NCBI GenBank assembly: GCA_051599415.1
Contig: AP039697.1
Location: 496,001 to 537,975, forward strand
From: Savitreella phatthalungensis
Lineage: Eukaryota
Direction of reading: 5' to 3'
DNA: 41,975 nt
Shown: positions 387 to 33,037 of the stretch, piece by piece
How the letters are laid out: each line of letters starts with the position of its first letter
Numbering within the stretch: the stretch's first letter is position 1
Made by a program: the position numbers and the translations under genes
The notes under the pieces: model-generated
Told to the model about the DNA's origin: nothing
Databases searched by the model: none
Seen by the model: the letters and a program-made list of their open reading frames with translations, nothing else

Positions 387-2306
387 CTAGCGCGACCTCC
401 TTGAACCCAATCCAATCTTGCCGCTGTACAGGTGCTTCGGCTTCGTCTCTGCGATGTGTCTGTCGGACTCTGATGCACGAGCCATGCGGTTACGCTCGCG
501 TTGCTGTACTTTGAGCAAACGTTCCGCTTTAGAGCGCATGATTTCCGTAGCGAAGCCAGCGCGAGAGCGGTCGCGAGTCGGTGCACGGGAGACAGACCGA
601 ATGCGAGAGACTGATCTTGCAGCGGCCTCTGAGTCGACCATGTCAATATCTGCCGCGGGCCGAGCGCGGCCACGACTCGCCCGTTCTTCGATCGCCCTGG
701 TTGGCAGGTTATTGGATTGCAATGTATCGCGAAGGTCTGAGAACTTTTGCAATCCAGCTGTGCGTGGGATTTGCGGTCGATTTTTCAGGACCTTTTTCGA
801 TCTGGCCAACTTCTTCAACTTCTCGTTCTTTTGACGGATGAGCTGAGCTTTTGTCAGAATCTCCTCGTCGGCGTCATCCACCATCTCATCTTCCTCGTCG
901 TAGAAGCCCTCTTTCTCAAGCGTTTCTTCTTCAGCCTCCAGCGCTGCAAGCTTGGCATCAATGTCGGGGTCAATGTAATCAGCAATGTTGCGTCCATTGA
1001 TAAGTTCTGGAGCCTTGTCAGCTTTCCATTCATCATTCTCCAGATCCCACTTCTTCTTGAGATCGTAATTGTATGTTCCTGCGCCGCCATGTTCGGCTTC
1101 GAGGTCTCGCTCGAGTCGTCGTCGATCCGGTGCGTTCCAGTCATAGTGTGCTCCTACCACAGCGCCGTCGGGAATGTGGGGCAACCTGGGATTGTCATCT
1201 CTGGCGGCTGGATTGGACAGATGTATCCGATTGAGCACATCGTTGATCTTATTACCGCGCAACTTTGATTCGACGCGCGCGGCCAGGAGCTTGTCGCAAG
1301 CAACATTACGAACGGCCATGACGCCCTCATCGTTGAAGCATGAAGATGTGACCATTTGCACACCAGACTCGACGATCCCCTGCAGGAGAGCAGCATTCTC
1401 CGGGTCAAGATCTTCCGGCCGCACGATGTCTATTTTGTTGACCACCAAAACGACGGGCTTATTTGCAAACAGCGGCTTGATTGAATGGAAGAGTTGCACC
1501 TGTGCTGCGATCGTATAACCGCACTGTTCCGACAGATCCATGAAATACATCACGCAGGCACGGAGATGCGCCATAGCTGTAATGCTTTGCATCTCGATCG
1601 TGTTCATTTCCTCCAGCGGATGGTCAAGAATGCCTGGTGTATCAATCACCTGCCAGCGAAGGTATCGATAGTCCATATGCCCAACGAAAAGCGACTTCGT
1701 CGTGAACGCGTATGGTTGTACATCGACATCAGCCCTTGTAATCTTATTGATGAACGATGACTTCCCGACATTCGGATAGCCGCAGAGAATCAGAGTCCGG
1801 GTATTGGTATCAATCGCTGGCAAACGACCGAGATGCTGTCTGACTTGTTCGAGATACACAAGAGAGTCCTTTGCGCGGCCTCTGAGGATTGTTGCCATGC
1901 GGCCGAGAGCAGCGCGCTTGAGCTGTTTGCATCGATACAGCGAGTCTCCGTATTTAATGAGGCGAACATAGTCCCTGGAAACCTGCTCAATCAGATGCTT
2001 CGCTGTGGACAACTGAGATAGCGCGATCTTGAGATGGTCGCGGTCATATAGAACATTCAGAAGATCCTGATAGAATGGATGAATGTCGTTGAGCTTGGGA
2101 AATTCGTCGAGAATGCTCTGGAGCTTCTCCGAGAACGTCTCCTGCGTGAACTTGATCTTGCGAGCATAAAAATTGCGGATACGCGAGATCTTGAAACCAG
2201 AGCGGATGACAGTAGGCGTCTTGCGTTGCGTTCTGGACAGAACAATATCGAGGAAGTCCGTTGCGTTGGGAATCGGCTGAATAGCCTTGAACCCTGCCGT
2301 GGCCAT
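387..2306 (-). CDS. NOG1: Nucleolar GTP-binding protein 1 (60S biogenesis GTPase)
   Basis: 639 aa with N-terminal [17 protein letters not shown]1 GYPNVGKS, G2 YAFTT, G3 DTPG, G4 NKID and C-terminal KPKHLYSGK, all typical of Nog1. Confidence 0.97.
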
Positions 2307-2771: not shown

Positions 2772-3734
2772 ATGAATCCATCTGCGGATCCAGAATCGAT
2801 ACGACTGTCGCTGCTCTCCAATCCGCAGATGCTCGCGCAACTTCGAGCGCAACAACCGGCTCTAGCAGAAGCGGCGGTCAATGATCCTCCGCGCTTTGCG
2901 CAGATGCTCAGAGATATGGCTCGACAGCAGTACGAAGATCAAGCAGAGCGCGATCGTCAATATCGTGCACTTGAGGACGATCCGTTCGATGTTGAAGCGC
3001 AACGCAGGATCGAGGAGATCATCCGGCAAGAAGCGGTACTGGATAATCTCAACAATGCTATGGAATATCACCCGGAGTCATTTGGCCGAGTGACGATGCT
3101 CTACGTCGATGTCGAGGTCAATGGACACAAGGTGAAGGCATTCGTCGACTCCGGCGCGCAGGCAACGATCATGTCGCCGGATTGCGCTGAGCGCTGCAAC
3201 TTGACTCGTCTGATCGATAAGCGTTTTGCTGGCATTGCGCACGGCGTCGGGACAGCCAACATCCTTGGTCGCGTCCACTCCGCCCAGGTCAAGGTCGGCA
3301 GCATGTTTATCCTCTGTAGCTTTACGATCATGGAAGGCAGAACAGGTCCCGAGATGCTGCTTGGACTTGACATGCTTAGGAGACACCAGGCCAATATCGA
3401 CCTGGGAGCAAACAAGCTACGCATCGGCAACGAAGCCGTCCGATTTCTGGATGAGCATGAAATACCTGCTGAAGCCAAAGACGTGGAGGCTAAAGCGAAG
3501 ATGTCGGCAGTGCCATCAAACCCATCGCAGCTCGACCGACAGGCGCCATTGACATCGCAACCGGCTTCGACAGGGCCAATGGCATCGTCGCAGCCCTCTG
3601 TCAGGGGCGCGGCTTCAACTGAGAAAGTGCAGCAGTTGATCTCCATGGGCTTTGATCACGCGGAGTGTGTGCATGCACTTGAAGCGACAAGGGATGACGT
3701 CGAACTGGCAGCAGGCATTTTGCTGGGCAATTAA
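2772..3734 (+). CDS. DDI1: DNA damage-inducible aspartyl protease / ubiquitin receptor Ddi1 (Mud1-type: HDD-RVP-UBA, no UBL)
   Basis: Retroviral-protease-like motif AFVDSGAQATIMS, LLGLDMLRRH, and a C-terminal UBA (QLISMGFD...ALEAT..DVELAAGILL). Confidence 0.93.
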   Translation: MNPSADPESIRLSLLSNPQMLAQLRAQQPALAEAAVNDPPRFAQMLRDMARQQYEDQAERDRQYRALEDDPFDVEAQRRIEEIIRQEAVLDNLNNAMEYHPESFGRVTMLYVDVEVNGHKVKAFVDSGAQATIMSPDCAERCNLTRLIDKRFAGIAHGVGTANILGRVHSAQVKVGSMFILCSFTIMEGRTGPEMLLGLDMLRRHQANIDLGANKLRIGNEAVRFLDEHEIPAEAKDVEAKAKMSAVPSNPSQLDRQAPLTSQPASTGPMASSQPSVRGAASTEKVQQLISMGFDHAECVHALEATRDDVELAAGILLGN

Positions 3735-3897: not shown

Positions 3898-4866
3898 TCA
3901 GCCGCGTACCGACGACGACAATTCCTTGTAGTACATGAGCTCATCATAGCAATTCCTGTAGACACAGCCAGCCAGGTTGATGACAAAGTCGCGTTCGGCG
4001 TAAAAAAACTGACGATCATTCTGCGCTTCAGTGCAAGCGCCCGGGGGAAACGCGTTGATCTTCCGATTACCGACAAATGCAACAGAGGAGCGCAGCCATG
4101 ATTGACTGCGGTAGAGCTCTTGAAAGGCATCCTGCTCCTTTTGAGCCCACTGCATGTGCTTCTGCTCGTAAAATACCGGGTCCCACCAAACGTCCAGCAA
4201 GCGCTCGGTCCATTCACTCCGTCGGAGGAAGAATGATCCGAGATTAAAGCCGCCGCAATCCTGTGGAACGATCATATTTATGGGCTGCGAGAAGTCGACG
4301 TATGGCGCCTCAACATCGCGCATATCCAGAGGATTGTACGCGACCGACAGATTTCGCACTACATTCTCCTGCAAATTGTCGAACAAGTGTCGCTCGAGGG
4401 AGATGGACGGCTCCATGATGAAAGTTGTCAGATCGAGCCACCAGAACCATTCGGCATGTGGATGGTCGCGCATGACACGCTTGATAGTGTCAACCTTCTC
4501 CCACGATTCACGCCATTCATGCGCGTATTTGCGCTGCATTGACATGTCCATCACCGCGAGCTCGTAGCCGTGCTTGCGCGCGTATGCTCTCTTGTTGCCG
4601 ATAGATACCTTCTCGACTGCCCATTCTTGAGGACCTTTCCAATTCAGTACACCCCCACCCTGATTGATGGGCATAATGATGACAAGCTTTGGATGGCTGG
4701 GGAACAGGACATACAGTAGTAGATAGACAATGGCGATGAAAGCAATGACTACCAGCACCAACCATCCTGCCGGAGTGAAACCGAATCGTAGCAAACCGTA
4801 CCGTCGAGACATGTCGTCATCGTCATCATCCTCATTCAGATTGCGGGCGCGTGCACGCCTGACCAT
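3898..4866 (-). CDS. MNN10: Glycosyltransferase family 34, alpha-1,6-mannosyltransferase Mnn10-like (type II Golgi membrane protein)
   Basis: N-terminal TM anchor (WLVLVVIAFIAIVYLLLYVLF); NKRAYARKHGY, WRESWEKVD, AEWFWWLD, QDCGGFNLGSFFLRRSEW and EQDA motifs. Confidence 0.85.
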   Translation of the reverse strand: MVRRARARNLNEDDDDDDMSRRYGLLRFGFTPAGWLVLVVIAFIAIVYLLLYVLFPSHPKLVIIMPINQGGGVLNWKGPQEWAVEKVSIGNKRAYARKHGYELAVMDMSMQRKYAHEWRESWEKVDTIKRVMRDHPHAEWFWWLDLTTFIMEPSISLERHLFDNLQENVVRNLSVAYNPLDMRDVEAPYVDFSQPINMIVPQDCGGFNLGSFFLRRSEWTERLLDVWWDPVFYEQKHMQWAQKEQDAFQELYRSQSWLRSSVAFVGNRKINAFPPGACTEAQNDRQFFYAERDFVINLAGCVYRNCYDELMYYKELSSSVRG

Positions 4867-8088: not shown

Positions 8089-8234
8089 GCCGATCCCGCT
8101 TCGTCACTAAATAGCGGTTCATACTTCTGATTGCATCGATACGAAACACGTTTCATAGTGTCAGACGCGTGATCGAAGTGTATAATGCTGAAATCGCTGG
8201 CGTTCATGACAAACAACAGAGGACGCACCTTGAC

Positions 8235-8909
8235 ATGAGTGCTGTCAGGCGTAAAGGCTCCCTGACGCCTTCGCAGCTGCGTCAAAAAGGGGGCACGGTC
8301 AGAATCCGAGGCAAATCAGCTTCGAATCAATCGGCATCACAAAGTGGCGAGATTGAGCAAGAGCGAAACGAGGCAGAGGCCATTCAGGACGAGAACGAAG
8401 CAGTTCAAAACCATGAGGAGCAGGAAACATCTCAGCATTTCAATGAGGGAACAAACGATGCTTCAAGCTCTTCACAGCGCTCAGCTGCGGATATTCTGGC
8501 GGATCACGAAGCTCGTCGACAAGCTCAGCGTGATAGAGCCCCGCAGAAAGGATCTCAGGAAAAACGTCCGCTTGGCTCGCATCTGTCGTTCGGCGGACCG
8601 AAGAGCAAATTGTTCGCTCGCCGGCGCTTGATCTCACGTGAACCGCGTAAGGATGCCTTGAGTGGCATCACCAACAATGACTTGCGTCGGCTGGCTCGTC
8701 GTGGTGGAGTCAAGCGTGTGAGCGCTGCAATCTACCCTGAAGCTCGACGAGCCATGCGCGATTTCGTTCGACCGCTCCTTGGCAATATTGCGGCAATCGT
8801 AGAGATGCGAAAGCAGCAGACCGTCACATACAAAGACGTGATTTATGCGCTCAAGTTCGCTGGCAAGACGCTATATGGATTCAGCAATGATGTCAAAGCG
8901 AAGCGTTGA
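8235..8909 (+). CDS. Divergent histone H4-like protein (H4 variant) with a long N-terminal extension, 224 aa
   Basis: First ATG at 8235 (the ORF track starts at a GTG at 8169). The C-terminal DALSGITNNDLRRLARRGGVKRVS...TVTYKDVIYALKFAGKTLYGF aligns without gaps to H4 residues 24-100. Confidence 0.85.
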   Translation: MSAVRRKGSLTPSQLRQKGGTVRIRGKSASNQSASQSGEIEQERNEAEAIQDENEAVQNHEEQETSQHFNEGTNDASSSSQRSAADILADHEARRQAQRDRAPQKGSQEKRPLGSHLSFGGPKSKLFARRRLISREPRKDALSGITNNDLRRLARRGGVKRVSAAIYPEARRAMRDFVRPLLGNIAAIVEMRKQQTVTYKDVIYALKFAGKTLYGFSNDVKAKR

Positions 8910-8948
8910 CAGGTAATGCAAGCGCGAGCATCTATGTCCAGGAGATCG

Positions 8949-9364
8949 TTACACTTTACGTGAGCGTGATCGCACTGCTGTAGTTGGAGATTGTGTCGCG
9001 GTCGAGCCGATCTTCTTCGTTTCCGCTGTAGTGCGAGTCGTGATAGCATCGCTCGCGGCTACCTCGGCCTCTTGCTCGGGCGCGGCGATATGGTCGGCTT
9101 CTTCCTGTGTCAGGATCGCCGTCTGTCTTCGTTGATCTGCGGGCTTTTTGCTGTCGGCGAGCCCGGCTGATGGAAAAGGATGGTTTGACACTGGCTTGCC
9201 TCTAGATCTCACCGGGTCAGTGGCTGAAGCTCGAAGTCTAACGTGGTCGGGTTTACTCACTTCAATTCCTCCCGTGTTTTCTCTTGCGTTCTCCGCAGAC
9301 TCGACACAAGGATAAGCACAGCGACGAGGATGACGGTGCCCCACAGAAATGCTGACCAAGACAT
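8949..9364 (-). CDS. Hypothetical 118-aa single-pass membrane/signal-anchor protein, two exons (9364-9261, 9201-8949)
   Basis: ATG at 9364 gives MSWSAFLWGTVILVAVLILVSSLRRTQEKTREEL. A 59-nt intron 9260-9202 (GTGAGT...CACTGAC...CTAG) splices in frame (AA+A=Lys) onto the 8949..9359 ORF (GKPVSNHPF...RSRKV*). Confidence 0.65.
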
Positions 9365-9606
9365 GATGGTGCTAAGCAATTACGCTGGCGTTCACGGTGT
9401 CGTCAAAATGTTCATATTGTGCGGGCTGGCAGTATGACGTGCGGCTGAATTTTTAGCAGGTTTCGATATTCGTGTCACGAAAGTGCGCGGCCACGAGCTC
9501 GATAATACGTCGTAGAAGTGGAACAACTTGCGCATTTGCACGAGAACGACCAGCGGGGCGAAGGCGCGAAGTAAACACAATTAGAAGGACTTTGCGTGAC
9601 CGAGCC

Positions 9607-10110
9607 ATGATACACGCGATCATGATTTTCAACAACGACGGCAAGCCTCGATTGACGAAGTTCTATGCTCAGATTCCCGTATCGACGCAACAAATGCTCA
9701 TCTCGGAAATATTCTCGCTCGTCAAGGGCAGGCCTTCATCGGCGTGCAACTTTCTTGAGGGTTCGACCCTTCTTGGAGGAGACGAGGTTCGTATTGTCTA
9801 CAGAGGGTACGCAACGCTCTGGTTCTGCTTTGTGGTTGATGATGGAGAGTCTGCGCTGGGTACCCTTGATTTGATTCAGGCGTTTGTCGAAGCGCTGGAT
9901 ACAAAATTCGGTAACGTATGTGAGTTGGATCTCATATTCCACTTTGACACTGTTCACGCTGTATTGGCTGAGTGCGTAAGCGGTGGGTTGGTCGCGGAGA
10001 CCAATGTTTCCGCGATCGTTGCTGCTGTCGACGAAGGCACGAAACAGCAGGCGCTTGACAGGTCGATTAGCGGCGGCATCTTCCGACGCAATCCCCTCCG
10101 CAGCAGATGA
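9607..10110 (+). CDS. APS3: AP-3 adaptor complex sigma subunit
   Basis: MIHAIMIFNNDGKPRLTKFY...CNFLE...YRGYATLWF...VCELDLIFH is the sigma-3 signature. The start is placed at ATG 9607. Confidence 0.92.
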   Translation: MIHAIMIFNNDGKPRLTKFYAQIPVSTQQMLISEIFSLVKGRPSSACNFLEGSTLLGGDEVRIVYRGYATLWFCFVVDDGESALGTLDLIQAFVEALDTKFGNVCELDLIFHFDTVHAVLAECVSGGLVAETNVSAIVAAVDEGTKQQALDRSISGGIFRRNPLRSR

Positions 10111-13687: not shown

Positions 13688-16111
13688 TCAGGACCGAGCC
13701 ATCAACTGATCGCGAAGGACTGTGAATTCAGCCATGGCGGCGTCGGTCGGGGTAATCTCTCCCATTTGCTCAGGCTCATCGATCCCAGCTCTCTGCATGG
13801 CTAGCATGTATCTCTTGCTGGCACATGGATCAGCAACAAAGCCAGCTTCACGCATCTGCTCCCAGCATTGACGCATCAGCTCGGGCCGATGCGGCTGAGT
13901 TCGTTCATATACTGCAAGCATTTCTTCGAACACGGCACTGAGTGCGTATTGCCCTTCTGTCTGGACGAGACCGCTCGCCTCGCGTGGCAGCTTTGCCATC
14001 AGATTCTCTACAGTGCGATGCCAAAGGGTTTGCGCACCCTGCAGGTCATCCGTTGAAGCGCAAATCTGCAACATTTTGTGCACAGATGGCAAATCCGCCC
14101 AACCGGCAAGGTTGACGCCCAAATCAAATAGCGCGTCCACTGACAACTTCATGTTTGCGACGTCGAGGTCGATGTTCGCCTTGACACCGACGAATTCGCG
14201 TTGCCACTGTCGAAGACTCAGGCGCAAGAGCTCTTTAGATGCGCTCGGACGACGCAGGGCAGCTTGCAAGATGAAGTATGTGGGCAATGAGCATTTGCCG
14301 AGCTCGTCCTGGAGGGCACGTATGACATTGAGAGCAGCCTCGCGGTTACCCCGTGCGAGCTGTCCAAGACTCAGGGCGACAACGCAATGTTCTCGCAGCG
14401 CGACAGGCAGCCCTAGACTGCCTGCCAGGAGCTTCGACTGTAAGATTGTGCTCGTATCTATTGCCTTTGCATAGACAAGCAGCACGAATGTTCCACGGTC
14501 CTGCCGGAACCCGCGGGCGAGGTCAGATTGTACTGCTCCGAGAATCTCGTCCGTGCTTCTTCCCGCGAGGATCATGCTTTTGAGGTGCAAGTTGAGCAGG
14601 ACTGAAGATCCAGATTCCCCGTCCGGTTCGACACCATGCCAGAGATTCTCGATAGCTGAAAACTCTTCGCGAATGAGATGGAGCTGGATGGCTGCGAGGA
14701 TGGTCGTGGCCTCTGAGCCTTGGAGCAATTGGGCAACAGCTTCCTGAGCTCCATCGCCATCTTGGCGAGCTGCGAAAATGTCAATGCTCTGCAACTTAGC
14801 AAGAGTACGGACTGGCACTCTGCCTCGCTGCGCTACTGACAGAACATCGAGAGAGCCATACGCATCGAGCATGCCAGCCCGCATCCAGTGAAGGATTGCG
14901 AAAACAGCTCGATCAGGCTGCTGTCGATATTGCCGAAATCGAGCGAGAGCGCGTCTGACGCCGGCAACATCGAAAGCATTCACCTCCGCCTGCACCAGCA
15001 CACTGAGCATTTGTTTGTCTGGAACGAGACCACTTCGAAGGAATTCTTCAAAATAGCGCTTCGTCTCCTGAGGCTTGCCTGCTGCGGCGAAAGCGTGCAT
15101 TATACTCGTATACGGGCGAACGAGTTCGAGGGCGTGCGCTGGACGATCGTCAAGGCATCCTTGAAATACTTTTACGGCGTTCTCTAGGTCGCCGACCTCT
15201 CCATGAGCTCGAATCAATACTGCATCCAGTCTGGGCGATCGCGTGATACCTGATTTTGCGTCCGCAAGCACCTCGTCATAGAGCGCGATTGCGAGCTTCG
15301 GGCGGGAGTCACTGATGCAGCCGGACATGACCGCTCCGATCTCGTTTCGTGTCAGCATGCCATCCTGCCAAAGTGCTCTTTGTAGAAATCTGTAAGCCTT
15401 GAGCGAGAGACCTCGACGACTCAATCGAAAGACCATTTCTCTTCTGAATACTATGCGAAAGCTGCGCGCGACGTCGTCACTGATACACTTGATACAAGCA
15501 AATGTGTCTTTGTTAGGGAGAAGATCGATAAGCTGGGCAATTGCCTCGGGTGGTCCTCCATACTCGGAGAAACCGTCATGAAAGTTTCCGGTGATTGTGC
15601 GATGGCATTCGTGCCACAACCTAAGACCAGTCTGCCAATCTCGCAGGGCAATAGCAAGCATCATCAATCTATCCTTCAGCTCGTACTTGTCTTCCGGCTC
15701 GAGTCGTGGGAACAGTTTCCAGGCATCTTCGACAGCTCCCACACTGATGAATGCCCAAACCTTATAGTACGTCAAGGTCGCACGGTGAAGCTGTTCCGAG
15801 ACGGATCGACTGTCTAGGAGGGTGAGCAACCGCTGAGCGTCCAAGCGGGATTCTGTTTTGTACATCTCCAGTATTCTGCCAAGCAATGCATGCTTAGATG
15901 CGAGCATGTCTTCCGAAGAAGCCATCCAAGCTCGCCATAATGTTTCTTTATCACCGGCGGCAAGCAACCGGTCAAAGTCTAGAGATGACTCTCTGGTCAA
16001 AGTTGAAAACGTATGTGGAAGAATGAGAGGCCGCAGCAGTGACGCAACCGTCTGTCTGACATTTGGACATGCATGCCGCAGCGCTGTGAAGCCAGATTGC
16101 GCAATCTTCAT
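13688..16111 (-). CDS. Pentatricopeptide-repeat (PPR) protein, probably a mitochondrial RNA factor
   Basis: ~35-aa helical repeats, e.g. LDAVLIRAHGEVGDLENAVKVFQGC and YTSIMHAFAAAGKPQETKRYFEEFLRSGLVPD. First ATG at 16111 with a presequence-like N-terminus. Confidence 0.8.
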   Translation of the reverse strand: MKIAQSGFTALRHACPNVRQTVASLLRPLILPHTFSTLTRESSLDFDRLLAAGDKETLWRAWMASSEDMLASKHALLGRILEMYKTESRLDAQRLLTLLDSRSVSEQLHRATLTYYKVWAFISVGAVEDAWKLFPRLEPEDKYELKDRLMMLAIALRDWQTGLRLWHECHRTITGNFHDGFSEYGGPPEAIAQLIDLLPNKDTFACIKCISDDVARSFRIVFRREMVFRLSRRGLSLKAYRFLQRALWQDGMLTRNEIGAVMSGCISDSRPKLAIALYDEVLADAKSGITRSPRLDAVLIRAHGEVGDLENAVKVFQGCLDDRPAHALELVRPYTSIMHAFAAAGKPQETKRYFEEFLRSGLVPDKQMLSVLVQAEVNAFDVAGVRRALARFRQYRQQPDRAVFAILHWMRAGMLDAYGSLDVLSVAQRGRVPVRTLAKLQSIDIFAARQDGDGAQEAVAQLLQGSEATTILAAIQLHLIREEFSAIENLWHGVEPDGESGSSVLLNLHLKSMILAGRSTDEILGAVQSDLARGFRQDRGTFVLLVYAKAIDTSTILQSKLLAGSLGLPVALREHCVVALSLGQLARGNREAALNVIRALQDELGKCSLPTYFILQAALRRPSASKELLRLSLRQWQREFVGVKANIDLDVANMKLSVDALFDLGVNLAGWADLPSVHKMLQICASTDDLQGAQTLWHRTVENLMAKLPREASGLVQTEGQYALSAVFEEMLAVYERTQPHRPELMRQCWEQMREAGFVADPCASKRYMLAMQRAGIDEPEQMGEITPTDAAMAEFTVLRDQLMARS

Positions 16112-18923: not shown

Positions 18924-19757
18924 ATGCTATCCAGAAGAGCACTGACGACCGCAACTCGCATGCAGGTGCATGTGCGTGGGATTTCAACGACAGCCAAGGT
19001 TGCAGCATCAGTCGCGACTTCCGAACAGGCTCCTCGCGCTGGAAAGGAGCCAAAGATGAAGAAGTTTTCGATCTACAGGTGGTCGCCAGAGACGCCAGAG
19101 GAGAAGCCCAAGATGCAGCAGTACGAGATCGACCTCAACGCATGCGGTCCGATGGTCCTCGATGCGATCATCAAGATCAAGAATGAAGTTGACCCTACCC
19201 TCACATTCCGACGGTCTTGTCGCGAAGGTATTTGTGGTTCTTGCGCGATGAATATCGACGGCCAGAACACACTAGCTTGTCTTTGCAGGATTGACCCAAC
19301 GAAGGAGACGAAGATCTACCCGCTGCCACACACCTACGTCGTCAAGGATATCGTTCCAGATTTGACATTGTTCTACAAGCAATACAAGGCGATCAAGCCT
19401 TACCTGCAGCGCAACGAGAAGGACTTCCCAGAGGACGGCACGGAGATTCGTCAGTCAAAGGCAGACCGCCGCAAGCTCGATGGTCTGTACGAGTGCATCC
19501 TGTGTGCATGCTGCTCGACTTCGTGCCCATCGTACTGGTGGAACTCTCAGGAGTATCTCGGCCCGGCCGTACTCATGCAGGCCTATCGCTGGCTCATCGA
19601 CTCGCGCGACCAGGCTGGCGCGGAGCGTCGCGACATGCTGAATAACTCCATGTCTCTTTACCGCTGTCACACCATCATGAACTGTGCTCGCACTTGCCCC
19701 AAGGGTCTCAATCCGGGACTTGGCATCGCAAAGATCAAGAAGATGATGCTCGATTAG
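18924..19757 (+). CDS. SDH2: Succinate dehydrogenase iron-sulfur subunit
   Basis: Presequence MLSRRALTT...; Fe-S motifs [35 protein letters not shown] and [20 protein letters not shown]. Confidence 0.98.
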
Positions 19758-21373: not shown

Positions 21374-22912
21374 ATGGCCTTCGGTGCGCTCTGGGATGGC
21401 CTGACCCGGCGCTTTCTCTCGATTCAATGGTTAATCGCTCTTCTTGTCGACCTCGCTCCATTGTACCCACGCTGGGTCATCTTCAAGCTGCCGCATGCCA
21501 TCAGCAGTTATTATGTGGATACCTTCAATGATCCCCTGGCGGCTGGCCGCAGCAAACCGGGAGGCTGGTATCATTCACTCGTCTGGCTCGAGATTGGAAT
21601 TCAAGTGCCACTGTCCCTCTGGATCGCGAGGCAATATCGTCGAGGCCGACAATATGATACAAAGACTCTTGCAGGTCTGCTATTTTACGGCGCCCAGGTC
21701 GCAACAGCGACTTATGCTTGTATATATGAGATGCTTTCTTTTGATGCCGCAACCTTAAGGGCTCAAGAGAAGCTGATCCTTTTCAGCTTCTTTGTTCCTT
21801 ATGTCATCCTGCCGCTGGGCTTCGTTTTCACTGCCGTACTACGCCTTTGCGCCAATACTCACAAGGCAAACCAACAGGCAGCTGTCCTGGCATATATCGG
21901 TCGACAAAAAGTCGATAGCCTCACTTATGTGGTAACCGGTGCAAACTCCGGCATCGGATTTGCCATAGTTGAGCAGCTGATCGATCAGTCAGAGCTCGCA
22001 TTGCAGATGAGAGTCGTTCGACTTCAGCTAATACTGACAGTCCGAGATCAGAAGAAAGCACAGGCGACACGAGTGAGACTACAAAGCCGCCTCGAGCGGT
22101 ATGATATCGAAATCACGTTTGTCATTCTCGACCTGTGCTCGATGGCGTCTGTCTCGGCTGCAGTGAAGGACATCAAGTCGCACGTGTCATCGATCGATGC
22201 GATCATTCTGAACGCAGGCATGGCCGAATTTGAGCAGCTGAGCGTATCGATTGCAATCAAACAGGTCCTCACTCGTGGTGTAGTGCATGCCATCACATAT
22301 CCTGAATATAAGGTGCAACGTCTCGGCTCGAAAACCGCCGATGGCATGACACGCATTTTCCAGGCCAATTTCTTTGGTCACTACATTATGGCTAGTCTAC
22401 TGGAGGACATCAGCAAGGCCGCCATCTGGATGAGTTCTCTTGAAGCATATAAGGAAAACTTTGATCCTCAGGACTGCCAGGCTTTGAGCCATCGCAATGG
22501 ATATGAGTCGAGCAAGCGCCTCACAGATATCATGTTCTTTGACCAGCGCGCTCGCTCCAATGGTCGCAGGTTACATCTGGTGCATCCCGGCTATTGCTCG
22601 ACCAACATCGTTTCAGCCGTTCTTCCGAGGCCTCTTCTCTATCTGTGGGAGCTCACTTTCGACTTCATGTATATATGTGGCCACCGCTTCCATACCGCCA
22701 CTGCTTATAACGGTGCCTATTGCCCAGCAAGAGTCGCTCTGAATGTCGACGTCCTGTCACAAGACGTCAAGTGGGGCTCAACCGTTTCTAGACTAGGCGT
22801 CAGTGGCATTGGAGTCACCGATTTCCCTACAGTCGATCTCAACGAGCCAGCAACAAAGCAAGTGGTCCGGGAGGTTAATGCGCTGCGCCAGGAATGGCTA
22901 AATAGACTATAG
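21374..22912 (+). CDS. ERG27: Fusion protein: N-terminal EXPERA (TMEM97/Ema19-like) membrane domain + 3-keto-steroid reductase Erg27
   Basis: The N-part has LLVDLAPLYP, YYVDTFNDPL, W..S.VWLEI..QVP, YG...AT.T..CI.E and PYVILP (EXPERA). The C-part has VVTGANSGIG (21929-21958), LILTVR...KA, ILNAG, FQANFFGHY, IWMSSLE, YESSKRLTD (22502-) and HPG (Erg27-type SDR). No stop between the two. Confidence 0.85.
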   Translation: MAFGALWDGLTRRFLSIQWLIALLVDLAPLYPRWVIFKLPHAISSYYVDTFNDPLAAGRSKPGGWYHSLVWLEIGIQVPLSLWIARQYRRGRQYDTKTLAGLLFYGAQVATATYACIYEMLSFDAATLRAQEKLILFSFFVPYVILPLGFVFTAVLRLCANTHKANQQAAVLAYIGRQKVDSLTYVVTGANSGIGFAIVEQLIDQSELALQMRVVRLQLILTVRDQKKAQATRVRLQSRLERYDIEITFVILDLCSMASVSAAVKDIKSHVSSIDAIILNAGMAEFEQLSVSIAIKQVLTRGVVHAITYPEYKVQRLGSKTADGMTRIFQANFFGHYIMASLLEDISKAAIWMSSLEAYKENFDPQDCQALSHRNGYESSKRLTDIMFFDQRARSNGRRLHLVHPGYCSTNIVSAVLPRPLLYLWELTFDFMYICGHRFHTATAYNGAYCPARVALNVDVLSQDVKWGSTVSRLGVSGIGVTDFPTVDLNEPATKQVVREVNALRQEWLNRL

Positions 22913-23779: not shown

Positions 23780-24781
23780 TCATTCCTCTTCCTCATCCGA
23801 TTCATCCTCGTCTTCGTCGCCAGAGACCTCGAGGTTATCCTGCTCTGCCTTGAGCATGAGCTCTTGGAGCTCTGCCTCATCCGCATCGGATGTAGAGAAT
23901 GGCTTGCGCTTGATGACCAAGTTGCCACCACGTGACCTGATGGATTTTTCAATCTCGGAGATGGCATCGTCCAGACGTTTGATGCCTTGAGTCTTGTCGA
24001 GTGCCTGTGTAAGGACAACGAATAGTGGTGCAGCGACAAGCTTGACTTGAACTTTGCCCTGCTCTACGCCTGCTGCTTTTGCTTCTGCAGCCGCAACTTG
24101 TTCCTTCTCAGGATCTGCCGCCGCGGCTGCCTGGAGTGCCTCAGAAGGCTTGTGTGCAGCCTTGAGGGCCTCCTTGATAGCGTCGATGCCATCGTATCCA
24201 AAGCATGTCACTTCGATGTCCGCACGACACTTGATTGCCTGCGGCGTGAGCCTGCGGGAGATCTGCTGCAACAGATCTCGCTTGACCTCAGGTGACGGGA
24301 AATCGATGCCGTCAAAGATGACATCTGGCTGAGCGATCGCCATTTTGAAGGCATCGTACGCGTGGCCATGCTTGCGTGCGAGAGGCCATCCGATCCGTTC
24401 GTAGAACTCTTCGAGCGATACATTGTGCTTTTCTGCAACGTTCCGAAGGATCGAGTGGACACTTTTGGACTTGTTATAGCGTTCCTCACACTTGGCGATG
24501 TCTTCAGGTGAAACACGACGTTTCGACAAGTCGATATATCCCTTCTCCTTATCAACACGCAGAACAACGACGACCTCGTTGCGCCCGACGCGGATGAGTT
24601 TCTGAATGGAACGAATCCGCCGCCGAGAGAGCTCACTGAGCAGGATCATGCCCTCGATGTTGTCGTACTCGAGCAGGCGGACATACGCCCCCATCTCTGC
24701 GATCTGCCGAACATTGACGACGGTGAGCTCATCGACTTCTGGGAGTTTGTTCTCGTAATACCTGCAGGAGGTGAGACTCAT
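23780..24781 (-). CDS. SUI2: Translation initiation factor eIF2 alpha subunit
   Basis: MSLTSCRYYENKLPEVD, EGMILLSELSRRRIRSIQKLIRVG (Ser51 loop), KGYIDLSKRRV and an acidic C-terminus. ATG at 24781. Confidence 0.97.
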   Translation of the reverse strand: MSLTSCRYYENKLPEVDELTVVNVRQIAEMGAYVRLLEYDNIEGMILLSELSRRRIRSIQKLIRVGRNEVVVVLRVDKEKGYIDLSKRRVSPEDIAKCEERYNKSKSVHSILRNVAEKHNVSLEEFYERIGWPLARKHGHAYDAFKMAIAQPDVIFDGIDFPSPEVKRDLLQQISRRLTPQAIKCRADIEVTCFGYDGIDAIKEALKAAHKPSEALQAAAAADPEKEQVAAAEAKAAGVEQGKVQVKLVAAPLFVVLTQALDKTQGIKRLDDAISEIEKSIRSRGGNLVIKRKPFSTSDADEAELQELMLKAEQDNLEVSGDEDEDESDEEEE

Positions 24782-26234
24782 GGTGACTCGCACGGGACTA
24801 GAAGATTTCGAGTCGCGCGTTTGATGTGGTCAGGCTCCAGGCTGCCAAATTCTTTTGCCTAGATTTGCTGCAGCTGAGACGTCGTGACGTGCGCTGCCTC
24901 TTCGTAAATCGCGTAGTGCTCGAAAGCACGTCGGAAGATGTGGATTGGCTTTCCGGGAGCGTGAGCAGCAAGTTTTGAAGAGTGACTTGTGCCAACCTAA
25001 CTTGAAAATGAGGCATGCGAGACGACCAGGACGTAGACATTTTTTATCGTGTGAGTCACGTGTTTGTGGCTTCGTTCGCTGTGCCACAAATGGTTGAGTC
25101 GCAACTGGGCACCACTGTACTGATATCGCGGCGCGTCGGGCGAACGAAGCAAGATATCGACAGAACCAGAAATTGAGACAACGACGGCAGGCTGATCTAA
25201 TAAAGTCCATGATGAGCATTAGCTCCGCGATCGACGTCTTGATTCCGGACAAAGATATTCTTAGTCGAACAAAGAGGCGAACGCCAGATTCCCACGGACC
25301 ATGCATAGCATAGAGCGAGGTTTCTTGTATATCGAGTTCTGATAGCCGTGCGTGCATCAATTGTCATTAACCTGAGTAGATTGGCGAGTCTAGGACAGCT
25401 CGATTGCCACCTAGAAATCCATTTTTCCAGTAACATTGCTAGCTAAGCAGGCGATTTTGTATAGCGACACCAGAAATGCTGCGTAGCTGCAGACACTTCT
25501 CCAACTCCATCGAGAGGCTCTAAAGCTTTGTCCACGCACATCCCTGAATCGGCAATGTTATTCCTGGTCATACCTGTCATATCTCGCTGCTCTTTCCGCA
25601 TTTGTATGCCATGCAGACGCTTAGTGGATCATGTCATTAACTAATGATAAGGGGTGCTCTAGATTATAACACTCGCTCCCCGAGACGGGCGTTCCCGCTG
25701 ATCGTGGGCCATCACGCGATCGTGCACGTTTCCTGGATTACGTCCATGCCGTCATTTCGCTTGACTTCTTTCTGTATTCATGACTTAACGGATAAAGTTA
25801 CCTTCCGGGCGTAGTATTGTCGTTTTCTCACTCACTGAGAATGCTTGATGAGCTCTCTAGTTTGCCGACCAAGCGCGTATCGGATCTCGCAGCGCTTACT
25901 CCACTCACGAAGAGCATTTTCTAACAGCTTGCCGGCTAAAACATTGTTGGTCTGTGCTCCTTGTTTCATCTTCTCGAAACGCTCGTCGTCGTGATCTCAA
26001 TCTTCTCAACTGACAAAATGTTCGTCGGGCCGTCGTATCTTCGGCTCAACACGCTTTTCCAGACACGGTACTCATCTTCTCGCATGCAAGGAAAGCGTCA
26101 GGTGACCCCACGCTGAAAGCCTTTTGTCGAATACCCTTTCCTCGTATACGTCCAATCGTTTTCGCGAGGCTTTGCAGGGGAGAGCTTTGCAGCAAAAAGG
26201 TCGATTGAACACTGAAATCCTGCTCATACATCTC

Positions 26235-28861: not shown

Positions 28862-31800
28862 TCACCGGCCTGCCAGGACTCCCGCAGCACTGCAGCTGTA
28901 AAGTGCAGGATCGTAGCACGCCTGCCCACAAGCCTGTGTGACAACGCCGTTGATGATTGGGCATAGCTGGGCATCGCTGTAACAAGTGTAGGAAGACTTG
29001 TCGTACGTCGTGGTCCCGCAAAGGCCTAAGCCTCCGGAGACAGGGGTCGCGCCTGCTTCAGCACCCTGAGCAAGCTTGCCCGTCACAGTATCGCAGTGGT
29101 ACAGCGCTGGGTTGTAGCAATCGTTGCCGCACAGCTTGGAGACGACATTGCCCTGGATCGGACACAGCTTGTTGCCGTAACAGGTGTACGAGGCTGGATC
29201 GTACTGAGCCGCGCCGCAAGACTGCAGGCTCGGAGCCGAGACAGGCTTGGGAATCGACGAAGCTACACCGACGAGAATCTGGCCTGATGGACAAGCGTAT
29301 TTCGCTGGATCGTAACACGCACCTGCGCAGTTGTAGTAAATCGTGCCGGCTTGAATCGGGCACAATTGCGAATCGTCCCAGCACACGTACCAGCCTTCAG
29401 TGAATTTGGTGCCCGCGCATGTGCCACTGGTTGTGTAGATGCGACCAGATCCTGTAGCAGAGCCAACCTGACCTGGAGTCATGTCAGACGCGCCAGGGGC
29501 GAGAGCAGCGCCAGAGGACGCAGCCACGACTCCCACTGTCGTCGTCTCGGAAGGCGCGGTAGTCACTGGAAGACCAGCACCTGGTCCGCCCGCGGTCGAG
29601 CCGGTCGAACCGGATGAGCCAGTGGCACCAGCGGATTCAGTCGAGCCGCCCGAGCTATTGGGCGGCGCGGAGCCAGAGACTGCGCCAGTGCCAGAGTTAC
29701 CAGATGAGCCAGTAGAGCCCGAGGAGGAGCTGCCTTGATTGTTCGAGACAGAATCTCCGGGTGGCGAACCACTCGAGCTCTGAGATCCGGAGGTCGAGCC
29801 ACTCGAGATAGTGGAACCAGAAGAGGACCCGGTTGAGTCAGACGATCCAGATGACCCAGACGACCCAGCGGAACCGGTCGAGGCAGAAGATCCAGGAAGG
29901 CCACTCGAGCTAGAAGAGCCGTTTGAGCCTGATGATTCGGTCGAAGTGTCTGTGCCACTGTTGCTAGAGCCTGATGATGCGCCTGCATTCGTGCCGCTGG
30001 CAACACTCGATCCAGCGCCAGAGCCAACCACAGTCTGCGTCGACGAGGACTGCGTTACTGTAGTCAAGGTCGAACCGCCAATTGTTAGCGTGCCGCCACC
30101 AGCAGTGATCGTTGTGGGCGGCAAGACCGTGGTAGATGTGGTTGCAACAACAGTAGTCGACGTTGCGGCCGGGACACTAAAAGCCGAGGAGCCAGTCGAG
30201 GCACTTGATGCACTAGCCGAAGAGGTTGACACGCTTGAGGTGCCAGCGGATGTGCTTGTACTGCTTGAAGCAGATGTACTCGTGTTCATCATGACGCTCG
30301 CGCTGCTGGAAGGAACGGTCGAGGTGGTCGAGACGATCGAGTCCATGGAGCTCGCGGAAGAGGGTAACGTGCCACTCGTAGATACGCTGCTGGGAAAGAT
30401 GGCAGATACAGACACGCTTGAACTTGCAGGTAGAATCACTGGCGAGCCTGAGACGGTGGTCGAGAGGGAGATCGTACTTGTCAGCGAGACCGGAAGCTGA
30501 CTGGTTATGCCAGTGACGGTCGCCGTCACAGGAACGGTGCCAGAAGCAGTAACAGCCAGCTGGAAGTTGCCAGCACCGCCAAGACCGGCAGCGTATGTCA
30601 GATACCAGGTCAAGGAAGCACCTCCGTCCAACCAGCTAGAACTGTAGTTGGGATCACTGAAGGTCTGATATGCTGCGGTAGCGTTAGATATCGCCAGGTT
30701 GGCATACAGAATGCCCTTCCAGCCAGACGTGAGTGTTGGCGCCAGGGCGCCCAAAAGAGCAGACCATTCCTGTGCAACAAACTTAGGCTGGCGAATGAAG
30801 GCTGAGACCGGAGTCAATGGGATCATGTGAATACCCTGAATGTATTCAAGGTTGCTGCCAAAGTAGGTCGTGTGGTCGATCTTGTTCTCAAAAGTGATGC
30901 CCGCCACATAGTTGTTGATCATGGCAGGAGGCATGACTGTGTTGTCGGGTCCGAGAAGCATGTAGTCATTCATAGCCCGCCGCATGATGGAGAGCTGCAG
31001 ATTGGCGCGGGCTTCCATGGACGGATCACCGATGACCTTACCCCACAGCTTGATAGCGTATATCGAGTTGTAATCTTCCGAGCTCGACTCTTCGTCTTTG
31101 CCGTCCGCGGATTCTGTAATACCGTGTGCCCAACTGTGTCCGGCGAACCAGTCGAAAGAACGAGAGAAGGGCAGATACGGATCGCTGGTCGACGGATTGG
31201 CGTAGTCACGAATCAAAGTATTGACCCAGGCTTTGTTCTTTCCTTGCTGCAACCAGGTCGGGTCGATGTGCGCGATAACAGCAGCGGTATAAACATGATA
31301 GCCGTAGTGGAAGTGATGGTCATTGTAGACAGCATTGCCGAAGTCGCAATCCCGCTGAGCTGTGCCACCGGCGTCACCACAACTCGACATGACGCCCTTC
31401 CAGACGGTGTCATATGCGACCGGGTTGATATTGCTGCTGCCAATGAATGGGGCGAAGGCAGACTTCAGAGATGACAAGCACGAGGTCGCGTCAGAGCCAA
31501 GAACGTCATTGACAACGAGACAGATCTGCGCGAACTTGGCCAGAGCCTTCCCAGAGAAGTACATGCTGTCCATGTTGGTCTGAGCAGCCATGTTCTGTTG
31601 CAGCTCGGCGTTGGCAGCCTTCGCGATAAGCTGCAGAGCAGAGGCAGAATAGTTCTGCAGATTTCCAAGCGGACTCCACGGCAGCCAGTTGATGTCGGTT
31701 GGCAGGTTGTTCTCGCTGAATGAAAGTGTATTACCCTGATATGCACGCATCAATCCTTTGGTGTTGGACCAAAGCTTGAGCGAGGTCGGTACGCCGGCAG

Positions 31801-33037
31801 AGACGGACTCCTGGAGATGGGGGTAGACGAATGTCAGGAGCGGCAGGCCAAGTAGTTGTACTGGACTGTAGCTGAATGAGTACGTCGCGACCTTGCCAGA
31901 ACCCTGGCCACTGACGATGGCACCGGTCGGGTAAGTTCCGACCGATGAATCGTATGTCGCCTCGTCGGCGTTGGTGAAGCCTGCAGGTAGCTTCGCAACC
32001 TGAAGAGCACCGGTCCAGGGCGCGTTGCCAGCGAGTTGTGCACCGTTTGTTGCAAGCGTCAAGCTTAGAGGAGTAGAGGACGATGAGATGGCGTATACAA
32101 GCCAGGTGTCGCCGTTGTTAATATTGAGCCTCCATTTTGTGACGCCGGAAGAGACGCCCACAGGTGCCTTGAATGACACAGGCGTCAACAATGTGAAAGC
32201 TGCAGTGCCGGAGAAGAGGCGAGGCGTTAAATTGTTGTACCGCATGGTGAGCAACGCATTGCCATGCACGAGAGTAATGACTGCGCTGCCACTGCCAGAG
32301 GTCAGCGTGACGTCAAGAGATTGGGACTGGATGTTAGAATTTTGCAGAGCAGGCGCATTCGAAGTGAATTCTGTAGCACCGAAGCCCACCGGGCAGCGTC
32401 CCACAGGAGCAAAATAGTAAGAAGGATCGCCGTTAAAGCTGCCGCCATACACATAGTCGGACGCGGCGTTGTTGCTGACGCAAAGGCCGTTACTCTTGTC
32501 CAGGTTAAGAACGTAGGGCATTGGGTAGATCTGCGAGGTCTGACCGCCAACCAGCAAGTTCGTGTAAAAGTTATTGGTCTGAATAGGCGATCCAGAAGTA
32601 CCTCCGTATTGAGAAGCGACGTTCAGCGGCGGCTGAAACTGTTCCGTCGTCGTACGTCCAAGAACAGCAGCTGGGTTATCGGTAGCGATGCTCGCGAACA
32701 GATCATTCGCGATTGCATTGGCGACGACGGTCGGCTTTACGAGGTTTGTGGTGAGAGAAGTTGTAGCAATCGAAGGAGCGTTGGCTGTTGTCGCTTGCGT
32801 TACTGTAGATGGCACGATTGGATCTGTCCCTGTCTGGGTAATTGGCGTATAGCCGCTCGTTGCGGAAACGGCTGCAAGAGTTCCATTCGCGACTTGAGGG
32901 GAAGCTGTTGCATCAGCAATCGTGGCGGTGTTCACCGAGGTGCCCGTTCCCGCCGAGGACTGTCCAGCAGCCAGGCCGAACAGTGCCGCAGCAGCGGCCG
33001 CTGTGGTCGTTGTAGAAAAGATTGTAGGTTTCCTCAT
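28862..33037 (-). CDS. ENG1: Secreted GH81 endo-1,3-beta-glucanase Eng1 with a Ser/Thr/Gly linker and three Cys-rich CBM52-type repeats
   Basis: Signal peptide; PIQTNNFY, SMYFSGKALAK, DFGN..YNDHHFHYGY, RSFDWFAGHSWA.G, DGKDEESSSED and FENKIDHTTYFG...EYIQGIHM motifs; three C-terminal CG...Y....Y.C....LCP.......CG..CY.P..Y.C repeats. Confidence 0.95.
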   Translation of the reverse strand: MRKPTIFSTTTTAAAAAALFGLAAGQSSAGTGTSVNTATIADATASPQVANGTLAAVSATSGYTPITQTGTDPIVPSTVTQATTANAPSIATTSLTTNLVKPTVVANAIANDLFASIATDNPAAVLGRTTTEQFQPPLNVASQYGGTSGSPIQTNNFYTNLLVGGQTSQIYPMPYVLNLDKSNGLCVSNNAASDYVYGGSFNGDPSYYFAPVGRCPVGFGATEFTSNAPALQNSNIQSQSLDVTLTSGSGSAVITLVHGNALLTMRYNNLTPRLFSGTAAFTLLTPVSFKAPVGVSSGVTKWRLNINNGDTWLVYAISSSSTPLSLTLATNGAQLAGNAPWTGALQVAKLPAGFTNADEATYDSSVGTYPTGAIVSGQGSGKVATYSFSYSPVQLLGLPLLTFVYPHLQESVSAGVPTSLKLWSNTKGLMRAYQGNTLSFSENNLPTDINWLPWSPLGNLQNYSASALQLIAKAANAELQQNMAAQTNMDSMYFSGKALAKFAQICLVVNDVLGSDATSCLSSLKSAFAPFIGSSNINPVAYDTVWKGVMSSCGDAGGTAQRDCDFGNAVYNDHHFHYGYHVYTAAVIAHIDPTWLQQGKNKAWVNTLIRDYANPSTSDPYLPFSRSFDWFAGHSWAHGITESADGKDEESSSEDYNSIYAIKLWGKVIGDPSMEARANLQLSIMRRAMNDYMLLGPDNTVMPPAMINNYVAGITFENKIDHTTYFGSNLEYIQGIHMIPLTPVSAFIRQPKFVAQEWSALLGALAPTLTSGWKGILYANLAISNATAAYQTFSDPNYSSSWLDGGASLTWYLTYAAGLGGAGNFQLAVTASGTVPVTATVTGITSQLPVSLTSTISLSTTVSGSPVILPASSSVSVSAIFPSSVSTSGTLPSSASSMDSIVSTTSTVPSSSASVMMNTSTSASSSTSTSAGTSSVSTSSASASSASTGSSAFSVPAATSTTVVATTSTTVLPPTTITAGGGTLTIGGSTLTTVTQSSSTQTVVGSGAGSSVASGTNAGASSGSSNSGTDTSTESSGSNGSSSSSGLPGSSASTGSAGSSGSSGSSDSTGSSSGSTISSGSTSGSQSSSGSPPGDSVSNNQGSSSSGSTGSSGNSGTGAVSGSAPPNSSGGSTESAGATGSSGSTGSTAGGPGAGLPVTTAPSETTTVGVVAASSGAALAPGASDMTPGQVGSATGSGRIYTTSGTCAGTKFTEGWYVCWDDSQLCPIQAGTIYYNCAGACYDPAKYACPSGQILVGVASSIPKPVSAPSLQSCGAAQYDPASYTCYGNKLCPIQGNVVSKLCGNDCYNPALYHCDTVTGKLAQGAEAGATPVSGGLGLCGTTTYDKSSYTCYSDAQLCPIINGVVTQACGQACYDPALYSCSAAGVLAGR

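Follow-up and report, generated by a model that had tools for sequence, protein, structure and literature searches.

A strongly diverged histone H4 variant with a long N-terminal extension in Savitreella phatthalungensis and its possible link to the fungal H4E/H4v histones

Of the core histones, H4 evolves most slowly, and true variants of it are rare. A stretch of 41,975 nucleotides from Savitreella phatthalungensis (NCBI GenBank assembly GCA_051599415.1, contig AP039697.1, positions 496,001 to 537,975 of the forward strand; this whole stretch is called the window here and positions are counted from its first letter) contains an open reading frame (ORF) which a preliminary description, made from the letters alone, had read as a divergent H4 variant. 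The locus raises the question of what this protein is, a histone, another histone-fold protein or the product of a decaying copy, and, if it is a histone, from which H4 lineage it comes. We find that the ORF is a real gene and that its product is an H4-derived non-canonical histone. As to its descent, we lean by a modest measure towards a real single-exon gene for an extremely diverged H4 variant that is a far-diverged member or a sister lineage of the fungal H4E/H4v histones. The gene and the part of the protein (the query in the comparisons below) that identifies it are as follows:

8235..8909, plus strand: coding sequence of the H4 variant, single exon, ATG to TGA, 224 codons plus TGA
8652..8882, plus strand: H4 histone-fold region, amino acids (aa) 140-216, equivalent to H4 24-100 (38/77 gapless, PDB phmmer, AlphaFold2, Foldseek)

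The canonical reference used for the comparison was an animal-type H4, the first 103 aa of the fusion model P0241. It can be placed on the query in a gapless register, in which H4 residue p corresponds to query residue p+116. A recount in this register bears out the preliminary description: H4 24-100 is identical at 38/77 positions, as had been stated (H4 30-93 at 29/64, H4 1-23 at 3/23), the strings RRLARRGGVKR (151-161) and TLYGF (212-216) are both intact, and every one of the changes named at H2B and DNA contacts, together with the prolines at 52 and 64, is present (D68N, Y72I, H75M, R92F, R78Q, K79Q, E52P and N64P). The identity is much the same for 51 unique canonical-like cores, which are identical to the query at 35-40 of the 77 positions with a median of 38. 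Kept in the query are the DNA contacts of L1 and alpha1 (R35, R36, R39, R40, K44 and R45) as well as T80, D85, Y88, K91 and the TLYGF strand. When 254 H4-like proteins are ranked by BLAST identity to the canonical core, the query (49%) is second from the bottom, and only the metagenome protein P0260, described below, is lower.

A phmmer search of the Protein Data Bank (PDB) yielded 93 matches at E <=1, the best 60 of which were all H4, with a top E of 2.9e-20; this agrees with the earlier assignment to a non-canonical H4. PDB alignments that start at query residue 114 pair the residues GSH of the query with GSHM at the start of PDB chains, which are presumably left over from expression tags; this artefact makes the H4 match look longer than it is. 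Thus, only residues from about 135 onward count in the PDB match. One result weighs against the H4 assignment: no Pfam histone-fold family (PF15511, PF00125, PF02969) matched the whole protein at E <=1, and an NCBIfam search returned nothing relevant. In the controls, a canonical-type H4 (P0115) matched CENP-T_C (PF15511) with 32.4 bits and an H4E of Tuber (P0019) with 22.8 bits. The protein is thus too diverged for the curated profiles.

The same searches bear on the idea that the protein is a non-histone histone-fold protein, such as CENP-T or TAF6, that merely resembles H4. In CENP-T, too, a histone fold at the C-terminus is preceded by a long disordered region. However, the affinity to CENP-T or TAF6 which the preliminary description had raised was not seen: for aa 122-224, no CENP-T_C, TAF or Histone model of Pfam matched at E <=10, although the canonical-type control does match CENP-T_C, and the best PDB matches as well as the Foldseek matches listed are H4, nucleosome or chaperone chains. 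With RRLARRGGVKR and TLYGF intact, the probability of this explanation is next to negligible.

The predicted structure points in the same direction. An AlphaFold2 model built with an 86-row alignment contains the three helices of the fold, alpha1 (147-156), alpha2 (164-191) and alpha3 (199-208), with a predicted local distance difference test score (pLDDT) of 91-97. All Foldseek rows listed were chains of nucleosome or histone-chaperone entries, and nucleosomal H4 chains could be superposed with a root-mean-square deviation of ~2.7 A over ~78 residues and a target-normalised template modelling (TM) score of ~0.7. We conclude that the last 85 aa of the protein form an H4 histone fold. In silico, this fold docks on the H3 fold: the predicted complex with H3 reached a score of 0.81, while the best of three controls reached 0.00 (the mark for this score was passed by 51/78 solved complexes and 2/108 mismatched pairs). 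Contact agreement between the H3 complex runs was at least 87% and the pLDDT of the partner at least 77. Since H3-H4 is a textbook pair and the H3 used was an animal H3 fragment taken as a stand-in, the docking shows likeness to the H3-H4 handshake, not binding.

Is the ORF that carries this fold a gene? The public protein collection already holds an identical 224-aa protein as a called gene, and the codon usage is that of a gene. By log-odds trained on 17 genes of the window with Pfam support, the whole ORF scores 0.228 bits per codon in frame (0.098-0.321 for the 17 genes) and negative in the other five frames; the extension alone scores 0.219 and the fold 0.242, again with negative off-frames. 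In sliding 30-codon windows frame 0 was positive in 13/13 cases and the top frame in 12/13, and nowhere in the ORF is the in-frame coding signal stronger than in the acidic block at aa 41-80 (0.36-0.43). The nearest upstream in-frame stop is at position 8112. The only in-frame methionines are M1, M174 and M191, and since none of them lies between M1 and the fold, this ORF cannot yield the fold without the extension. Reads of four DNA runs gave short contigs of near-identical strains with three differences within the ORF, two of which are adjacent (8295-8296) and change one codon (T21 to Q), while the third (8444) is synonymous; these are too few for a selection test. The hexamer ACGCGT, which had been described as resembling an MluI cell-cycle box (MCB), is indeed present at 8165-8170, but the window has 11 copies where 11.28 are expected, so that it gives no evidence of regulation.

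The gene had also been described as not paired with an H3 gene, and this holds for the whole window: a tblastn search with six fused gene models, which contain H4, partial H3, H2B and, according to their listed Pfam families, H2A and H1 parts, detected no other histone gene in the 42 kb. The only stretch matched was 8637-8951, and it was matched via the H4 parts.

To place the protein, relatives were sought with a word-indexed search (608 matches among 1287 candidates) and with an exhaustive HMMER search of 1.84 billion representatives (3373 matches at E <=1e-3). Once tandem-H4 fusion models are set aside, both searches give the same nearest relatives, five metagenome proteins from Logan, ENA or JGI that are identical to the query at 35-49/77 core positions:

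P0004: 141 aa, 49/77 identical in the core
P0005 and P0006: 304 aa, 46/77, with a basic-acidic-basic extension layout as in the query
P0260: 156 aa, alpha2 interrupted by 16 inserted residues between H4 positions 64 and 65
P0305: 187 aa, clade member

P0260 was called by a metagenome pipeline (JGI), and its insert could be an unspliced in-frame intron. Neither P0004 nor P0005 reaches a Pfam cut-off. A profile search with the clade alignment revealed no new clade member among the 120 matches listed, which were dominated by tandem-H4 fusion models, and scans of metagenomes for the DNA of the relatives (queries P0001 and P0260) confirmed nothing.

A maximum-likelihood (ML) tree was calculated for 125 rows, consisting of 95 rows less than 80% identical to canonical H4 and 30 of the 101 unique canonical-like cores; four chimeric or truncated models were excluded and the minimum segment was 75 aa. 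The alignment had 83 columns and the model was LG+C20+F+G4 with posterior mean site frequencies (PMSF). The query and its five relatives form a clade, with an approximate likelihood ratio support (SH-aLRT) of 97 in the quick tree and an ultrafast bootstrap (UFBoot) of 100 and SH-aLRT of 97 in the careful tree, the bootstrap of which had not fully settled. Residues were then tabulated for five clade rows (query, P0004, P0260, P0005 and P0305), 34 H4E rows and the 51 canonical cores. I34L, T54A, V57A, T73V and K79Q/N are common to all five tabulated clade rows, and of these K79Q/N, I34L and T54A are specific to this small clade; R92 has given way to differing residues in 4/5 rows. Across all six clade members 24 columns are invariant.

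These relatives help to judge whether the gene is a decaying duplicate, that is a dead or dying H4 copy whose long ORF has survived by chance. Only one of the 254 proteins compared has a more diverged core, there is no Pfam match and an H3 partner gene is missing in the window, all of which could be expected of such a copy. On the other side stand 224 intact codons with genome-typical in-frame usage throughout, a fold that is modelled confidently with a predicted H3-type interface, and five relatives that keep the same derived residues and share the invariant columns. Decay is thus a very unlikely explanation.

The preliminary description had pointed to the H4 variant hH4v of Neurospora, now H4E/H4v. 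Histones of this kind (H4E and H4v) respond to nitrogen starvation. Two publications describe this family. H4E was found across the Pezizomycotina, in Taphrina, Saitoella and Neolecta, and in Glomeromycota; the proteins have longer, lysine-poor termini, and the genes have seven introns in Pezizomycotina, some of them common to basal Taphrinomycotina (PMC10878826). In Aspergillus nidulans H4E is nuclear and interacts with H3, its deletion being without phenotype, and a nudA-svf1 synteny of the gene is reported for Eurotiomycetes and Dothideomycetes; whether the fungal H4 variants have a single or multiple origin was left unresolved by the authors (PMC10878826). The Neurospora crassa H4v is 62% identical to H4 and present in nucleosomes resistant to micrococcal nuclease (MNase), it binds ASF1 and H3, needs the ATRX orthologue SAD-6 for its deposition and is itself required for silencing perturbed chromatin (10.64898/2026.08.11.744009).

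The pointer to this family proved apt. Shared derived residues, a constrained tree and a profile score all favour a link. The residues concerned are the following, given for the tabulated clade rows, the H4E rows and the canonical cores:

A33D: clade 4/5, H4E 65%, canonical 0%
V57A: clade 5/5, H4E 47%, canonical 2%
T71A: clade 3/5, H4E 47%, canonical 2%
T73V: clade 5/5, H4E 59% (20/34), canonical 0%
Y72 to aliphatic or C: clade 5/5, H4E V or I in 20/34, canonical 0%

H75 stays H in only 16/34 H4E rows; Y72 and H75, both singled out in the preliminary description, as well as T73 are thus variable across the 34 H4E rows. The suggestion made there, of unstable particles or particles poor in H2A-H2B or of a role outside nucleosomes, finds no support in the present analysis, and the Neurospora member with such variable positions is reported to be nucleosomal. 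The named variants of Pezizomycotina (Tuber, Pyronema, Orbilia, Calycina, Cladosporium and others) fall in a 34-row H4E group (97/88). A tree constrained to join the six clade members with these 34 rows has a log-likelihood 23.8 above that of the free tree (approximately unbiased test, p-AU 0.805). A common origin with H4E is thus not rejected and gives the best topology found; it is favoured but unproven. The hhalign score of the clade profile was 219 with H4E and 157 with canonical H4. Nearest among the Atlas clusters are 'Histone H4' clusters of 135-149 aa that are commonest in Ascomycota, which is a lead only.

In its general build the query also resembles H4E/H4v, that is the A. nidulans hheA product and N. 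crassa H4v (NCU04338). All of them combine a gapless H4 core with long diverged termini and few tail lysines, none is paired with H3, and past YGF a short acidic and then basic C-terminal tail follows; the derived A33D, V57A, T71A, aliphatic Y72 and T73V are likewise found on both sides. Moreover, H4E has been reported in Taphrinomycotina (PMC10878826), and the leads suggest that the query organism is an ascomycete, possibly one of the Taphrinomycotina.

Several findings weigh against this kinship and would fit an independent, lineage-specific H4 duplicate instead, a six-member family unrelated by descent to H4E/H4v in which the shared residues are convergent. The free ML search leaves the query clade outside the 34-row H4E group, and with only 83 columns the constrained tree may suffer from long-branch attraction. 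Sequence diversity is greater in the H4E profile than in the canonical profile (Neff 3.0 vs 1.2), and this may alone raise the hhalign score. Raw identity of the query to the H4E rows (35-43/77, median 38) is no higher than to the canonical cores (35-40, median 38). Introns of the H4E type are absent, the ORF being uninterrupted and the fold gapless, although intron loss is possible. The nudA-hheA-svf1 synteny is absent as well, the neighbours of the gene being a class-3 lipase (Lipase_3) and an AP-complex sigma subunit (Clat_adaptor_s); such synteny is not expected to persist across subphyla. Also missing in the query is the 35-aa C-terminal element of Neurospora H4v. Finally, the extension of the query is not more similar to that of P0005 than expected by chance, since shuffles reached the observed score in 238/2000 cases for the first 35 aa and in 69/1000 for the whole extension. 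An apparent N-terminal motif, R.G.LTP...VRI, common to the query and P0005 was rejected on the basis of the same two shuffle tests.

Some of the differences in sequence from H4E can be read in the same way. The query is identical to canonical H4 at 38/77 positions, whereas the medians of the 34 H4E rows range from 38 to 57 and only one is as low. Its K79Q, R78Q, I34L, T54A and R92F are atypical of H4E (I34L is found in 6%, K79Q in 3% and T54A in 12% of the H4E rows), and R78Q, K79Q, R92F and H75M exceed the typical H4E changes. In the query the N-terminal surplus amounts to 116 aa and includes an acidic block, while according to the papers that of Neurospora is 25 aa and that of A. nidulans 5 aa. 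An independent duplicate could form H3-variant particles that are tetrasome-like or hexasome-like and bind H2A-H2B weakly, or it could be a chaperone-bound histone-fold protein off chromatin, and the authors of PMC10878826 were themselves unable to decide for a single origin of the fungal H4 variants. Against this explanation, the constrained tree with H4E surpasses the free tree in likelihood and is not rejected, several derived residues are common to both groups, the profile score favours H4E, and with the fold and the predicted H3 interface intact nothing points away from nucleosomes. We therefore regard an independent origin as possible but rather unlikely, and kinship with H4E/H4v, near or distant, as the explanation to be preferred.

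The remaining features of the protein lie outside the fold:

8235..8354, plus strand: N-terminal basic block, aa 1-40, net charge +7 (charge table); pLDDT ~50-53, no secondary structure
8355..8474, plus strand: acidic/polar block, aa 41-80, net charge -11, 12 D/E and 1 K/R (charge table); modelled disordered
8484..8531, plus strand: predicted amphipathic helix, aa 84-99 (AlphaFold2, block pLDDT ~73-74)
8535..8654, plus strand: basic region in place of the H4 tail, aa 101-140, net charge +9 (charge table)
8883..8906, plus strand: C-terminal extension SNDVKAKR, aa 217-224 (direct reading; canonical H4 has GG)

The N-terminal extension had been put at ~139 aa. This number is right for the residues that precede the aligned part, but as a net surplus it is too high, since canonical H4 has 23 residues there and the gain is thus 116 aa. 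The GK-repeat tail was correctly described as replaced by a disordered basic-acidic-basic stretch: the net charges are +7, -11 and +9, each of K5, K8, K12, K16 and K20 is replaced in register, and residues 1-140 contain 8 K and 17 R. AlphaFold2 gives the extension a pLDDT of ~50 save for two predicted helices, 84-99 and 125-133, the second of which lies in the basic region that includes an RRR patch (129-131). Conservation of helix 84-99 was not found when the extension was compared with those of the relatives. At the other end, the extended C-terminus that had been reported can be read directly and is 6 aa longer than that of canonical H4; for comparison, position 101 is D in 19 and G in 9 of the 34 H4E rows.

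Altogether, the query shares with canonical H4 the histone fold, the RRGGVKR L1 loop, T80, D85, Y88, K91, TLYGF and a predicted H3-type handshake. It differs in having 224 aa instead of ~103, a fold that is 49% identical, no modifiable tail lysines, no K79 and no neighbouring H3 gene. Could it nevertheless be the only or main H4 of the organism, in a lineage in which all histones have diverged, as in the reports on Microsporidia and Rozella? There are lineages whose sole H4 is divergent (PMC10878826). However, the window encodes ordinary housekeeping proteins of good conservation (matches to solved orthologues score 909 bits for NOG1 and 425 bits for SDHB), a loss of all tail lysines and K79 together with a surplus of 116 aa would be unprecedented for a bulk H4, and the gene is not paired with H3. 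Such a role is highly improbable. Trypanosome H4V, human H4G and rice H4.V are further rare replacement-type H4 paralogues, with specialised chromatin roles. They are stated to be ~73-85% identical to their canonical H4 (10.64898/2026.08.11.744009), whereas the query is only ~49% identical and carries a long disordered extension.

If the protein belongs with H4E/H4v, its mode of action can be outlined by analogy. It would pair with H3 and be handled by H3-H4 chaperones such as ASF1, the contact of which on H4 is presumably the TLYGF strand. As for Neurospora H4v, deposition would be local, replication-independent and limited to a minority of nucleosomes, possibly with the help of ATRX, and the variant would not replace bulk H4. 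Since the tail lysines K5/8/12/16 and K20 as well as K79 are lost, readers of those marks would not engage with variant nucleosomes. With R78Q and K79Q the L2 loop, which lies near the nucleosome dyad, loses two positive charges, and this should loosen the dyad-proximal DNA contact. Y72, H75 and R92 are presumably H2B-facing residues of the H4-H2B four-helix bundle, and Y72I, H75M and R92F should loosen the interface with the H2A-H2B dimer. As a speculation, the acidic block in the 116-aa surplus may screen the basic parts until deposition, or it may bring in partners.

A further possibility, which we put forward tentatively and hold to be doubtful, is that the query and its five metagenome-only relatives are a hitherto undescribed fungal H4-variant lineage distinct from H4E/H4v. 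Such a lineage would be without the L2 contacts (R78, K79) and the H2B-bundle contacts, some of its members would have a self-shielding basic-acidic-basic region of more than 100 aa, and the proteins would form tetrasome-like or hexasome-like particles with H3 or mark special chromatin.

Several observations were made on the surroundings of the gene. Its 3' end adjoins a convergent gene on the minus strand (8930-9364), which starts with MSWSAFLWGTVILVAVLILVSSLRRTQEKTREELK, likely a membrane helix, directly followed by the donor-like site GTGAGT; this site indicates that the genome has introns. Upstream of the AP-complex sigma gene, the intergenic region contains an insertion of 8 bases (TTCCAATG) at 9461 in one metagenome contig from a near-identical strain. 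NOG1 (387-2306, minus strand) matches PDB 8esq_b with its 909 bits, followed by 3jct_b (760), 8i9r_CH (756) and 6lss_4 (696), which we take to be the chains from Schizosaccharomyces pombe, S. cerevisiae, Chaetomium thermophilum and human, respectively. As a lead, this order would point to Taphrinomycotina, and if that is correct the variant may be among the H4E genes of basal Taphrinomycotina which PMC10878826 has already counted. The best named matches of the neighbouring HMG-CoA lyase are 50-57% identical. Genes of fungal type in the window are a GMA12/MNN10 transferase and a GH81 glucanase; the latter (28862-33037, minus strand) is a 1391-aa endo-beta-1,3-glucanase with three C-terminal Carb_bind (PF10645) modules. 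The Atlas clusters nearest to an 807-aa pentatricopeptide repeat (PPR) protein (13688-16111, minus strand) are 'Complex I intermediate-associated protein 84' (CIA84-type) and PET309-type proteins, commonest in Ascomycota, and the CIA84-type assignment suggests that the organism has kept respiratory complex I. The 512-aa ORF at 21374-22912 (plus strand) joins an EXPERA (EBP-like) domain to a short-chain dehydrogenase/KR domain, a pairing that looked unusual.

No Pfam family was found at E <=1e-5 for three ORFs of 175-420 aa, at 24830-25357 (minus strand), 34700-35764 (plus strand) and 37947-39209 (plus strand). The plain translations of six ORFs (387-2306, 2772-3734, 3898-4866, 9607-10110, 18924-19757 and 23780-24781) are absent from the protein collection, in which four other ORFs of the contig are present, each in a singleton cluster at 90%; probably, the deposited models of these six differ in start codon or introns.

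The variant described here is more extreme than the fungal H4 variants with which it was compared. The H3-facing and L1 parts of H4 are kept, while the tail lysines, K79 and several presumably H2B-facing residues are dropped. The protein can thus be seen as a natural separation-of-function allele that shows which features of H4 a replacement-type H4 can lose. Since it is invisible to the Pfam histone models, genes of this kind are probably annotated as hypothetical proteins. In ascomycetes, H4v has been tied to genome surveillance of the ATRX type (10.64898/2026.08.11.744009, a 2026 preprint). If the variant is a member of H4E/H4v, it would widen the known sequence range of this family and add a long acidic extension to it; if it is not, fungal H4 variants would have evolved more than once.

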